From contig CAXHJY010000601.1 in the NCBI GenBank assembly GCA_964016885.1, forward strand, positions 1 through 64,000: a DNA stretch of 64,000 bases. Reading direction: 5' to 3'. The notes beneath the pieces were generated by a model, which worked only from the letters and a program-made list of their open reading frames with translations, was not told the DNA's origin and made no database searches. This document shows positions 7,990 to 60,237 of this stretch, piece by piece; the first letter of the stretch is position 1; each line of letters opens with the position of its first letter. The stretch is from Eledone cirrhosa (lineage: Eukaryota). A program made the translations under genes and the position numbers.

Positions 7990-8185
7990 TAGGAAAATGT
8001 TTGACCCCAACAGCAGAGCTCAAGCCATTTCGACGGCTATTTCTGAACTCAGAAATAGCCGTCGAAATGGCTTGGGCTCTGTCATCGAGGTCAAACATTT
8101 TCCTATTACCCACTCTACTACCCTAAGTATTGAGTACTCTGGTGCGTTATGGTCCATCTGGTTCCTCACCACTCTTCCTTTGTTA
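7990..8185 (+). mobile_element. fold-back element (family A): 116-bp palindrome plus tail
   Basis: 7990-8046 is the near-perfect reverse complement of 8049-8105; tail to 8185; homologous to 53091-53300; embedded in (TA)n. Confidence 0.85.
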
Positions 8186-8627
8186 TATATATATATATAT
8201 ATATATATATATAGAGAGAGAGAGAGAGAGAGAGAGAAATAGATAAATAGAGAGATCGATAGATAGATAAATATGTGTGTGTGTGTATGTGTGCATGTGT
8301 GTGTGTGTCAGTGTGTACATATTTCAAACATAGAAGTACAGAACAAATAGATAAAATATGTAAATTACTACTGCCATAGCTTAGACACATATACACCGAC
8401 ATGAACTCACTCACTCATGCATACTCACACATTCATACACACACACAAACAAATCTTCAGAGATGCATTCACATACATGCATACACATACACAAACATAC
8501 ACTGATGGAACACATTTTGAATGTTTAGTCTTTTCAGTTTTCTGTTTTTCAAATACTAATCTCAAACTTAAATTTTTAAATGATGCATTATCATCATCAT
8601 CATTATCATCATTATTATTATTATTAT

Positions 8628-8862
8628 TGAGTTCAAATCCCGTCGAGGTTAACTTTGCTTTTCAGCCATACAGGGTCGATAAAATAAAGTACCAGTAATG
8701 CACTGGGTAATTGCTGGCCTTGTGCCTAAAGTAGAAACAATTATTATTATTATTATTATTATTTAGGTTGACTTTGCCTTTCATCCTTACGGGGTCGATA
8801 AAATAAAGTACCAGTAATACACTGGATAATTGCTGGCCTTGTGCCTAAAGTAGAAACAATTA
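8628..8862 (+). mobile_element. two tandem 5'-truncated SINE copies
   Basis: GAGTTCAAATCCC...GTCGATAAAATAAAGTACCAGT...GTAGAAACAA followed by (TTA)n; 3' part repeated. Confidence 0.85.
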
Positions 8863-9389
8863 TTATTATTATAATAATTCATTTTGAATACATGTAAAAC
8901 AATATCTCTGCATTTATGAATCTAACTATTATTTAACATTTTGTTTAAGCACTTAAGCATTTCCTTTAAATATTTTAATATTTTACATATAATTCTGTTT
9001 TCTAATTTTATTGGACTTTTTTAAATATTTTTTTATTTTATTTTTTTTTTTTTGTTAAACATTGTTAAAAATGTGTTAATATATTTTTCAACTAATATGA
9101 AATTTCTTTATAAGACCACATGTCCCAATGATTATATTTATTTCATTATTACACACACACACACACACACACATATATATATATATATATATATATATGA
9201 AATATTATTTATTTCATTTCATATATTTTTGGTTAGATTCAAAATGGATTAAAGTTGATACGTTATATTAGATTGGCATCAGTTTGGATATCATTTCATA
9301 TTGTTTCACATTGTTTCATTTTTGTCTAAATATGGTTATATTAATCTACATGTCTTTTAAGTATAACCATATAGAAATAAGTAAAGGTG

Positions 9390-9670
9390 TAAAGCATAGT
9401 GTTTAGGGTGTTTGGTTCATGATCTTAAGGTTGCGGATTCAATTCCCAGAATGGGTGAGATACTGTGTGCTCGAAGAAGACATTTCATTTTACATTTCTC
9501 CAGTTCCTTCAACTGAAAATGCGTACCTGGGATAGCTGTTATCCCTATGATAGACAGGTACCCCATCCAGCATGAGTTTTTGAATCTGAGGTGATTAAAG
9601 CCCATCAATCTAGTATAAGCTCTGGGCTCTGTCAAGCTCATGCAAACATGGAAAAATTGACATGACATAA
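9390..9670 (+). mobile_element. tRNA-derived SINE (second family)
   Basis: tRNA-like head with B-box-like GGATTCAATTCC, decayed GTGTCCTTGAGCAAG-type core, RTE-like tail; similar to 37590 and 48857. Confidence 0.6.
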
Positions 9671-9780
9671 AGTAATGGCTCTAACTCTAACTTATACATA
9701 AAGAACAGATAAATATTAACTGAATGAGCACTCAATAATATAACAAAGTAAAGTATTTATTTTATAAGGAAAAAGTTGTT

Positions 9781-9826
9781 AGAGACTTTGAAGTTTCACA
9801 GGTGGAGTCAACTTCATCAGACAGCC
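9781..9826 (-). ncRNA. degenerate hammerhead ribozyme motif
   Basis: Minus strand CTGATGA-AGTTG ACTC CACCT-GT-GAAA-CTTCAAAG-TC; stem III ACTT/AAGT and GUC site present; stem I decayed. Confidence 0.5.
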
Positions 9827-11044
9827 AGTTATATTGATTATATATTGCTAAGATGGATATATATAGATATGATAATTGACTTAATTGTCATGTATGTATA
9901 TTATCATGTGGAAACATATTGGTTTTGCAATTTAAGTATCATCGGTGGTGATTTAGCAGAGTTGCTAGAGCACAGAAAAAAACACCACTCTAAGTTCAAA
10001 TCCCACCAAGGTCAATTTTGGCTTTCATACTTTCAGAGCATAAGATGAGATGCCTATATTTTCTAAGTTCATTCTTGCTGTTGTCTACTTAGTAGATTTA
10101 ATCTATTGCTTGGTTTAGCATCACCACTTGGCCCTTGGATGTCTTTAGCATTGTCTATTTTGTTGTAGCATTTGGACTAAGTCTTTGGTTTGAGAATGCC
10201 TCTCCTTCCAACAGTCTTGGAATCTGAGAAGGATTAGTGTCTCTGACTAAACAGTATATGATATGGCAAATATGCAGAAGAGTTAGAGCATCAAATCAAA
10301 ATGCCTTTTGGTAAGCTTAATTGTTCACACAATTTAACATCACCTTCAGACCATTGCACACCTTTAACTGAGTCCACTCATTTGCAGGCATTCAGGCAAA
10401 AATCTGTGTTCCAAGGACATTTTCCTTCCTCCCACCAGTCTCAGAGGTTATGAAAAAGGGTCATGAGCACTACTTGACCTAGCATTAAAAAGAAAGATAT
10501 TACATGGAATATAAGCCCATGCGAATTGTTTGAAATATGTATATCTCTTTAACAGTAAAGGTATATTAAATAATATATGTGGGGAAGGGGCAGTAGATTA
10601 TTGGTAAGTTATTTTGCTGATGGCTGTTTCTTATTGTTGTTATTGCTACCCCATGGAGAGGGGATGGGCTCTGCCAGGTTTTAAAACATGCCCTAGAAAC
10701 ACCATATATCAAGACAGTGTCCCTACGATTCCCTCGGGAGTTGCGGGTTGAAGATGTTTGCTACCCTGACTGAGCTAACATATAGTTAAACTGTTCCTGT
10801 TGTGATTATACTATCTTTATTTTATATTGATTTTGATTCTTTCATTTTTGAAACATAGTATAGTATATTATGTAAAACATTATGAGATGAATCTGGGTTT
10901 CTTTAAGATGTCAGTGTGTCAATTGAGGGATATTTGGCTGGTATTTCTAAAAGGCCAAATAATGATTTAGAGAAATCCCAATTTGTTTGTTTCAATCATA
11001 AAACTGTGAGTATAGTCTGAACTGAGTGAAGTTTCTTCATTTGT

Positions 11045-11460
11045 TTCCACTCACCATATTTCGAATGAGTGACTCTAAACAACAACCCTGAGCACCTGTT
11101 TGAATTCTCTGTGTGTAACACCTGTGAACTTGCTTACAAAACCAGAAAACAGTACAGCTCCCATGACTTTCGGAAATATTTTTTCACACTCAGAGTTGCT
11201 GAAGCATGGAACGAACTACCTGCATTGACTACTAGCTATCGGTACAATGCATTCTTCAAAATGTTTATGCTTCCCGAAATTCTCCAACACTACACCTGAT
11301 ATTCTGCCTCCATACGCACGCATGCATGTATCTGTGTATATCATGATACATACACTGTTCACTTTCCTGGCATTTGTACATTATGCTATGTACTATACAT
11401 ATCTTTGATGAATTGTAGTGCAGCTGAGCACTGTACACAATAATGTTCATTATTATCATT
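11045..11460 (+). mobile_element. CR1-like LINE 3' end
   Basis: ORF2 C-terminal signature AYKTRKQ...RKYFFTLRVAEAWNELP, then 3' UTR and (ATT)n tail. Confidence 0.8.
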
Positions 11461-58856: not shown

Positions 58857-59088
58857 CCTTTGTCAGTGTTGAACAAATGAGCAACGATGCTTGCTAGACA
58901 CTACGGCTTAATACGGGATGTTTGTTTACAAATACACAGAGCATTATAATAAATGTTCGGTGAATCCATACGTACATTTATATATGTGTGCATGTATGTA
59001 TATATATATACATACTACTGTACGTCTGTATACATATATGTATGTACGTATACATACTTGTATATATATATATATACAATATATTAAT

Positions 59089-59269
59089 TGTCTCTACTTT
59101 AGGCACAAGGCCAGCAGTTAACCAGTGCATTACTGGTACTTTATTTTATCGACCCCGTAAGGATGAAAGGCAAAGTCAACCTCGGCGGGATTTGAACTCA
59201 GATCGTAAAGGGACGTAATTATGCTGGAAAGCATGGCGTCCGACCCTCTACTGATACTGCCAATCCACC
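59089..59269 (-). mobile_element. SINE, full length with 8-bp TSD
   Basis: ATATTAAT at 59081-59088 and 59270-59277; intact A and B boxes. Confidence 0.93.
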
Positions 59270-59329
59270 ATATTAATAAATGGAAACTATATTTATAAAA
59301 CCATAATTATTTTATTATATATATTTCAA

Positions 59330-59513
59330 GGCGGTGAATTGGCAGTATCGGTAGAGGGCTGGACGCCATGCTTTCTAGCACAGTTTCGTCCCTTTACGGT
59401 CTGAGTTCAAATCCCGCCGAGGTTAACTTTGCCTTTCATCCTTACGGGGTCGATAAAATAAAGTACCAGTAATGCACTGGGTAATTGCTGGCCTTGTGCC
59501 AAAAGGAGAAACA
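59330..59513 (+). mobile_element. SINE, full length with about 17-bp TSD
   Basis: ATTATATATATTTCAAG(G) at 59314 and 59514; intact A and B boxes. Confidence 0.95.
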
Positions 59514-59794
59514 ATTATATATATTTCAAGGGCAACCAAGGTAAATTATGGTGCGCTTTCATCAGATAAAATAAATATGTTGAAACCCAACAAATTAAAT
59601 ATAACCTCTGCATATATATATATATATATATATATATATATAATTTTGAGTATATGTTGGTTATTTACCGACACCTCAGTATGGAGATTGGAGCACTCGA
59701 CGAAGTGCGCAGGTTGGTTTGGTTACTCCGGATTAATGTAAAATAAAATAGATAAGTCAAATATTTAAAATTTGGCTTCGTTTATTAAAGGTGT

Positions 59795-59849
59795 ACTGCT
59801 ATATATATTTTGGTTACAGCCATCCTTGGCTGTGACCTCTTCAGGCAGT
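59795..59849 (-). ncRNA. hammerhead ribozyme (left-arm copy, GAAA changed to AAAA)
   Basis: Minus strand ACTGC-CTGAAGA-GGTCACAGCCA AGGA TGGCTGTAACC-AAAA-TATATA-TA-GCAGT. Confidence 0.65.
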
Positions 59850-60065
59850 CCGAATTGGTGTGGTAGAGACAGGTACGCATGTTGTTGAGGTGTTTAACTC
59901 CGCCAATCCTCCGATATGCCCACTTCCTGGTCGGTTGTTATTTCTCTGAGGAACAGGAATCATATCAGAGAAATAACAACCCGACCAGGAAGTGGGCATA
60001 TCGGAGTCTTGACGGAGTTAAACACCTCAACAACATGCGTACCTGTCTCTACCACACCAATTCGG

Positions 60066-60120
60066 ACTGCCTGAAGAAGTCACAGCCAAAGATGGCTGTC
60101 ACCGAAATATATATAGCAGT
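60066..60120 (+). ncRNA. type I hammerhead ribozyme
   Basis: ACTGC-CTGAAGA-AGTCACAGCCA AAGA TGGCTGTCACC-GAAA-TATATA-TA-GCAGT: 5-bp stem I, long stem II, AUA site, AATAAA just downstream. Confidence 0.82.
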
Positions 60121-60237
60121 ACACCTTTAATAAACGAAGCCACATTTTAAATATTTGAGTTATCTATTTTATTTTATATATATATATATATATATATATA
60201 TATATATATATATATATATATATATATATATATATAT

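Follow-up and report, generated by a model that had tools for sequence, protein, structure and literature searches.

Probable short terminal pieces of Penelope-like elements with mirror arms, and a 428-nt retrozyme for which an enzyme of that kind is the likely mover, in (TA)n tracts of Eledone cirrhosa

The window, by which we mean the whole 64,000-nt stretch of Eledone cirrhosa DNA that was analysed, carries seven inserts of families A to F, an intact ribozyme and part of a reverse transcriptase (RT) gene. Family assignments to clades of Penelope-like elements (PLEs) in the list are putative.

7989..8183, forward strand: family A (older subfamily), with 7989-8049 as inverted arm, 8050-8183 as direct arm and the tail at ~8105-8183
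24294..24518, reverse strand: family D, probable Neptune/Nematis-like PLE 3' end; direct arm 24485-24294, 28-nt inverted arm 24490-24518
41021..41190, forward strand: family B1, probable pLTR of a subfamily in the Hydra clade; the inverted arm reaches 41082, the direct arm spans 41082-41190
51339..51608, forward strand: family C, an old end of pLTR type whose inverted arm reaches ~51412
53091..53298, forward strand: family A, young; both arms end at the 5' wall (-141), 77-nt tail 53221-53298
58271..59066, reverse strand: family E, 428-nt non-LTR retrozyme; direct arm 58702-58271, inverted arm 58701-59066
58812..58856, forward strand: minimal type I hammerhead, intact, on that arm of the family E insert which bears no tail; the window's only descriptor match, 58819-58849
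59644..60179, reverse strand: family F, probable pLTR of a Hydra-clade PLE; direct arm 59965-59646, inverted arm 59965-60179
62520..64000, forward strand: Hydra-like PLE ORF, RT and endonuclease end; 5'-truncated, frameshifted, a separate family

All seven inserts, each with an inverted arm and a longer, tail-bearing arm, were found where the sequence-only reading had placed them. Arm-to-arm identity is 89% (insert 7990), 93% (41018), 80% (51337), 100% (53091), 96% (58271) and 95% (59644). Insert 24292 is hardly a fold-back, since its inverted arm is just 28 nt long with 4 mismatches. (TA)n or TA-rich flanks border all seven, in line with the proposed targeting of TA tracts, and in an unbiased 1-Mb genome sample (TA)3 follows 67 of 78 scored ends, against 1462 of 20,000 random positions. 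Each family has two fixed outer ends and is multi-copy (355-2206 first-look candidates per family) rather than single-locus. There is next to no chance that the inserts are assembly fold-back artefacts: 53091 is a perfect 130-nt palindrome, but the other arms differ by 4-20%, and each family keeps the same outer ends on many different chromosomes.

An inverted arm plus a tail is the published form of PLE insertion. What had been proposed as a new class of hairpins resolves into insertion anatomy already known for PLEs. In the available part of Craig et al. 2021 (PMC8557442), canonical EN+ PLE insertions have an inverted 5'-truncated copy and a one-sided tail. The inserts share with them the inverted 5' copy, the tail at one end, heavy 5' truncation and microsatellite targets. 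They differ in tail length (~54-110 nt here, 30-40 there) and in that most copies are shorter than 350 nt and end at a fixed 5' wall, which is absent from that part of the account. In annotation, such short ends would be taken for MITEs, SINEs or miRNA hairpins.

A strict type I hammerhead descriptor was run on the window, the unbiased 1 Mb and a shuffled control, and gave 59 matches in the 1 Mb versus 0 in the shuffle. An Rfam scan of the window has no hammerhead among its best-scoring 150 of 366 matches; these 150 are dominated by TA-repeat miRNA models. The hammerhead at 58812..58856 has a stem I of 7 bp, a palindromic stem III and U-U at the stem II base, and its counterpart on the tail-bearing arm carries G8A. 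The family A hammerhead has a long stem and YUGANAA. Real hammerheads thus lie on the inserts as proposed, with the correction that the supposed GAAA half on 24292 is a complete U3-A8 variant core (~24458-24429). Only the ribozyme 3' half is present in 53091, in 7990 (of a variant hammerhead) and in 51337 (of a canonical one). Insert 41018 lacks the stem I 5' arm; its direct arm starts with GAAA at 41082 and 41021..41190 holds no complete ribozyme. In 59644 the direct arm ends at the family F wall (-323) and a near-intact core lies at 60071 in the inverted arm. As in the minimal PLE hammerheads of Cervera and de la Pena 2014 (PMC4209133, available part), there are palindromic helix III, the U3-A8 variant, mostly single motifs from truncated PLEs, and opposite-strand pairs 100-700 bp apart. 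Unlike those, many short copies here hold half a ribozyme because the wall falls inside it.

Although the inserts have no ORF, as the sequence-only reading stated, this does not hold for most of their families, and the PLE origin it proposed is borne out. In families A and F, and in B0 (sister to the subfamily of 41018), the tails continue directly into RT ORFs of their own. Among loci fetched by an ORF-start query, and hence pre-selected, an RT-homologous ORF comes after the tail in 24 of 30 for A, and a B0 ORF in 30 of 30 for B0. One F element (locus L182) runs in the order inverted pLTR, pLTR, RT ORF, UTR, pLTR. Family D lies downstream of a GIY-YIG ORF (PF01541, E 4e-7), in the order ORF with C-terminal GIY-YIG and CCHH-type residues, ~1.1 kb UTR, tail; from this endonuclease ORF, D appears to be a Neptune/Nematis-like PLE end. 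No RT was recovered for D. For family C (51337) a parent ORF was looked for and not found; its tail is 72% like that of F.

Hydra-clade motifs, namely DKT (replacing DKG) and RLRWR/RIRWR, of the N-terminal RWK type, occur in A and B0, together with a C-terminal endonuclease (EN) with a CxCx5C linker. In F, the RWRA motif is accompanied by DKT in locus L169 and DKI in L182, where no endonuclease was found. A, B0 and F combine a hammerhead in the pLTR with (TA)n insertion. Judged by these motifs, 7990 and 53091 (A), 59644 (F) and 41018 (via its sister B0) would be pLTRs of ORF-bearing Hydra-clade PLEs. The available part of PMC8557442 describes this clade, including Hydra-1_Obim of Octopus bimaculoides, with the same features: DKT, an RW-type N-terminal motif, a CxCx5C linker, C-terminal EN, hammerheads and (TA)n insertion. 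The 3' UTRs of more than 1 kb and the family A hammerhead depart from that description. The suggested link to Naiads does not survive: the ORFs carry Hydra-clade motifs, and in A, B0 and D the EN is C-terminal, ahead of the 3' UTR, whereas Naiads have an N-terminal EN, a C-terminal RT and no canonical hammerhead; in cephalopods only Naiad remnants are reported in the part of PMC8557442 available.

It had also been proposed that an RT like the one at 62.5-64 kb mobilises the inserts. That RT shares 39-45% identity with the proteins of A, B0 and F, and its element's 3' end matches no tail tested; it is a different family and not the parent of the seven inserts. Its RT and EN pieces gave no match in a Pfam search.

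Most tail-anchored insertions (37 of 54) have a mirror arm. Together with stereotyped lengths and a large excess of short over ORF-linked copies (31 A ends versus one A ORF fragment in 1 Mb), this is what the sequence-only reading would explain by protein-free hairpin elements that are transcribed and re-inserted in trans as palindromes. We consider that model quite improbable. A palindromic element that propagates as such would share its apex among copies, but all 36 family A apices examined are distinct, which contradicts the model for A. Arm lengths range from ~30 nt to more than 1 kb within one family, and kilobase copies that contain an ORF have these outer ends too. Apices were counted in family A; the listed B, C, D and F junctions are likewise varied. 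The stereotyped length of short copies follows from the 5' wall.

A diagnostic subfamily site agrees between the two arms in 28 of 30 copies (discordant in 2), and the within-copy arm distance is 1.43 versus 3.04 between copies, a value that none of 5000 permutations reached. This agreement would suit a model in which a single cDNA snaps back at a hairpin, for instance hammerhead stem II, and the wall is an RT stall or RNA processing site instead of a transcription start; so would the walls of A, in the stem II loop, and B, at the start of stem I. In D and F, however, the wall is far upstream of the ribozyme. Moreover, among 37 inverted pairs in the unbiased 1 Mb (scored with a B reference that ended at -134, the B wall being read on a longer copy), the inverted arm exceeds the direct arm by at least 5 nt in 14, the reverse holds in 4, and 19 show no such difference. 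In some pairs the arms have no overlap at all. Snap-back cannot yield such pairs, and short, varied fillers at family A junctions with no common upstream exon also speak against it, so we regard it as improbable. Since inverted arms often outrun direct arms, two priming events are favoured, a pattern that we did not find in print. An apex at hammerhead stem II holds for some short copies but is rejected as a rule: apices are variable, and in D and F the wall has another position.

The 5' wall is sharp: in family A, 1 of 49 arms that reach -120 goes beyond -155 (45.5 expected). Arm ends peak at -207 to -200 in D, at -133 to -127 in B and at -323 in F (15 of 54 arms); in the unbiased sample no F wall was seen among 8 arms, which end between -302 and -530. 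The wall is not the hammerhead cut site, which lies at ~-95 in A (wall ~-141) and ~-89 in B (wall ~-133). This agrees with uncleaved RNA being the substrate (PMC11167929). A splice acceptor is not favoured either: AG precedes the B and D walls, but family A junctions share no upstream exon. A sharp wall on short copies was not found in print. It is likely a transcription start; we lean towards a capped start within the 5' pLTR, and in D. virilis the transcript begins within the upstream pLTR. Copying of a cap would be expected to leave a G, and 8 of 15 arms have G as the base that follows the F wall (P about 0.01, post hoc), or 7 of 14 (P 0.025) minus the window copy, whose G is templated. This signal occurs in one of four families; it is absent in A, and the 4 G cases of D are mostly templated. 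From the wall one can predict the start of PLE transcription, and it may account for the large excess of short ends over full elements: scaled from 1 Mb to 3.0 Gb, there would be ~90,000 family A insertions. Because they stop at this wall, short copies look like run-off by-products.

Alternatively, solo pLTR units that retain a promoter and are transcribed may form non-autonomous, SINE-like families copied in trans, with a mirror arm made at each insertion. B1 and ORF-linked B0 differ by compensatory stem I changes, and none of the 44 B-type tail ends scored is a B1 tail entering an ORF; no ORF-linked copy was seen for B1 or C, so these two could be non-autonomous. On the other hand, long B1 copies have at least 390 nt of upstream UTR that is 73-77% like B0, and young short A copies are 97-100% identical to long copies over the common 140 nt. 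A short solo copy also lacks the ORF-start region, which the Anolis Poseidon protein requires on its RNA (PMC11167929, available part). This makes SINE-like families unlikely as the general explanation, but re-mobilised short copies with an internal promoter could contribute too.

We consider it quite likely that six inserts are short PLE terminal pieces with a mirror arm made anew, and that the seventh is a 428-nt retrozyme moved by the same kind of enzyme. The pieces would come from three Hydra-clade families, one Neptune/Nematis-like family and one whose parent was not traced. [quoted passage not shown] Priming sites are only 130-320 nt downstream of the wall, so most events would run off at the capped start as short dead-end copies; for a long copy, a read-through RNA would have to be primed at its downstream pLTR. 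Folding of 45-nt windows at the priming sites gave weak, mixed hairpin results. For Anolis Poseidon in vitro, the available part of Frangieh et al. 2024 (PMC11167929) reports two internal RT start sites, with both strands cut and extended. The likeness is that two internal starts define the tail and that ribozyme cleavage is not needed; head-to-head joining and the run-off wall, proposed here, do not figure in that part of the account.

Family E is of another kind. It forms arrays of ~17 head-to-tail units of 428 nt (retrozyme range 150-450 bp), with one type I hammerhead per unit. Its longest ATG-ORF is 53 aa, leaving it without coding capacity, and ARAGORN found 0 tRNA genes in it and thus no tRNA head. 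The core is intact in 65 of 109 pattern matches, ~11 of the 109 being from another repeat. Non-coding tandem units with one type I hammerhead each are likewise features of metazoan non-LTR retrozymes, and the U-U at the stem II base recalls axolotl HHR_Amex2 (PMC7229834 and bioRxiv 10.64898/2026.07.22.740005, as far as available). Insert 58271 is itself a direct-repeat retrozyme. Protein-free families moved in trans fit this insert only, given that A, F and B0 tails enter their own RT ORFs and D lies behind its GIY-YIG ORF. Contigs of the organism's sequencing runs contain E, and none of them bridges the window apices.

E has no sequence likeness to the 7 PLE ends compared, but it has the PLE insertion footprint, and for this reason an enzyme of the PLE kind is its likely mover. 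In the unbiased sample 15 of 17 E ends fall at -1 or -55, and 15 of 16 inverted clusters use one end of each kind. In the window copy, the direct arm is one unit plus 5 nt, and the inverted arm begins 54 nt inside the 3' end. E shows no wall, and several units can occur on both arms, as expected if its template is a circle, which we regard as likely; the circular fold is predicted to be stable (z -4.1 versus 40 shuffles). The available text of PMC7229834 and of the bioRxiv report makes no mention of a tail or inverted arm on retrozyme insertions, and draws the role of PLEs from co-occurrence or homology, not from an insertion footprint; PMC7229834 leaves open which enzyme moves animal retrozymes. 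On that question, a retrozyme with the tail-plus-inversion footprint of PLEs gives direct evidence from the genome.

It is conceivable, though we hold it only tentatively and as somewhat less than an even prospect, that the genome records a life cycle linking PLEs to retrozymes. The PLE RT would mostly run from internal primers to the capped 5' end, giving strong-stop copies joined in pairs; when it jumped from there to a 3' end broken close to the ORF start, new tandem units would arise; and established circles, such as that of E, would be copied repeatedly from the same two-site priming. If this is true, the enzyme class that moves animal retrozymes would be identified and their birth shown. 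Jumps from the wall to the ORF start, which we did not find in print, are a possible route to retrozymes: at one locus (L324) a 257-nt unit has the same junction twice, and about a dozen similar junctions occur elsewhere.

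The inserts are real and abundant, yet they belong to already known kinds. In all seven a tail extends one arm and the flanks are TA, and masked self-comparison of the window gives inverted pairs at 7991, 41021, 51343, 53091, 58332 and 59741. The architecture of arm, tail and TA described in the sequence-only reading holds, with an inverted arm of just 28 nt in the insert at 24292. The same reading proposed a new class of protein-free hairpins, propagating as palindromes and mobilised in trans. This class finds no support, as the apices of family A are all distinct (36 of 36) and the families are best read as ends of Penelope-like elements (PLEs), several of them linked to ORFs, or as a retrozyme. 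The families are A (inserts at 7990 and 53091), B (41018), C (51337), D (24292), E (58271) and F (59644).

The 3.0-Gb genome was searched with every family except the older A copy, and the best 30 loci each were retrieved. These sets are biased towards young copies spanning the query, and unbiased counts come from 100 evenly spaced 10-kb stretches. This sample holds 31 tail-anchored insertions of A (21 with an inverted partner), 13 of B (10), 7 of D (5) and 3 of F (1), together with 13 clusters of E and a single fragment of C. (TA)3 follows 67 of its 78 scored ends, compared with 7% of positions taken at random.

The hairpin is probably formed anew each time a copy inserts. Arms within one A copy are more alike than arms between copies. 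In the unbiased sample the start of the inverted arm is a second site of fixed position; counting backwards from the tail end as -1, this site is -78 in 13 of the 21 A pairs. Among 37 pairs, the inverted arm exceeds the direct one in 14 and falls short of it in 4, and the arms of several pairs do not overlap. This pattern fits two priming events on one RNA, of the kind shown in vitro for Anolis Poseidon (PMC11167929), and speaks against a snap-back origin of the mirror arm. The layout of inverted arm plus tail is already published (PMC8557442), and hammerhead pairs on opposite strands were noted in 2014 (PMC4209133).

Arms stop at a 5' wall. A arm ends cluster at -152 to -120, and 1 of 49 A arms passes -155 where the loss rate nearer the tail leads one to expect 45.5. 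Arms of B peak at -133 to -127, those of D at -207 to -200, and those of F at -323 among the top matches, with no such peak in 8 unbiased arms. In the window, both arms of the 53091 copy end at -141, and the 59644 copy ends at -323. A ribozyme cut site was rejected as the cause, since the positions differ. The wall is, somewhat more likely than not, the transcription start; in D. virilis Penelope, transcription starts inside the upstream pseudo-LTR (pLTR). The next base is G in 8 of 15 arms at the F wall, a weak cap-copying signal that is absent in A.

At loci L314, L315, L316, L319, L325, L326 and L329 an ORF start is joined back to the wall, at differing points. One such junction is present twice at L324, giving a 257-nt tandem, and about 12 further places show sequence matches across it at 78-94%. 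Such junctions have the appearance of products copied from RNA circles or made by 5'-to-3' template jumps; the L324 tandem may instead stem from local tandem duplication. A-derived junction units lack half of the ribozyme.

Locus L182 identifies family F as a PLE pLTR, since it reads inverted pLTR, pLTR, RT ORF, UTR, pLTR, (TA)n. The RT ORF of this F element (L182:5090-7350) ends before the UTR without an endonuclease; the element may represent an F subfamily devoid of one. The A tail continues into an ORF start; RT homology occurs in 24 of the 30 loci retrieved with that ORF-start sequence, and long A copies extend far enough to include an endonuclease, roughly 1.3 kb upstream of their tail. 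A B-type tail stands before another ORF. The ORF-linked form, B0, differs from that of the window insert, B1, by compensatory changes in stem I. Long, UTR-bearing B1 copies exist (73-77% like B0), and none of the B1 copies examined was linked to an ORF. L045:1375-1500 joins a B-type ORF start to a B1 3' UTR end, and the full junction is matched at one other place only (80%). A C-terminal GIY-YIG ORF precedes D by 1.1 kb. The C tail is 72% like that of F, and no parent ORF was traced for C. The window's RT, a PLE ORF at 62520-64000 (plus strand), is 39-45% identical to the A, B0 and F proteins. The latter three contain the Hydra motifs given in PMC8557442, whose supplement already lists Hydra-1_Obim of Octopus bimaculoides with a (TA)n preference.

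Canonical hammerhead cores are predicted in B, C, E and F, and candidate YUGANAA cores in A and D. A comparison of 30 long A segments shows U or C at position 3, an invariant AA at positions 8-9 and a variable position 7 (G, T, C); the D core is UUGAAAA in 20 of 20 matches to a pattern built for it. U3-A8 is a published PLE variant (PMC4209133). In most short A copies the ribozyme is missing its 5' half. A putative C3-A8 core (G8A) recurs in two families, in 22 E units and many long A copies.

E, the putative retrozyme, is a 428-nt head-to-tail unit in arrays of about 17. It has no ORF above 53 aa, and 65 of 109 pattern matches contain an intact hammerhead core. Of 17 array ends in the unbiased sample, 15 lie beside (TA)n at -1 or -55; 15 of 16 inverted clusters, counted after removal of three overlapping loci, have one end of each kind. 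Neither arm shows a wall and both can extend over several units, which is what a circular template predicts. E has no sequence likeness to the PLE ends tested. At L143 and L150 the TA tract immediately preceding a copy of the window's RT (98% identity) contains an E array; the two probably just share a target tract.

Three features merit testing at the bench: the 5' wall, the insertion footprint on the retrozyme and the jumps from the wall to the ORF. In a search with poor coverage of subscription papers, no published account was found of the wall, of PLE twin priming or of a PLE footprint on retrozymes.

Other repeats of the window are as follows.

40693-40916, 42783-42891, 45790-45934 and 60239-60399: TA-embedded repeat family with internal palindromes
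7787-7935, 12190-12301 and 53329-53476, minus strand: degenerate hammerhead-like family
27441, 29167 and 59565, minus strand: further CUGAUGA...GAAA cores, in other repeat families
57277-57588, minus strand: 103-aa frame, presumably similar to a non-LTR retrotransposon's C-terminal endonuclease region

The TA-embedded family forms an inverted pair at 40693-40916, and of the three degenerate hammerhead-like copies two are immediate neighbours of family A inserts, with a TA tract in between. An abundant repeat, which we take to be SINE-like, forms a head-to-head pair at 59078-59525 (86% inverted match) and has many further copies across the window.
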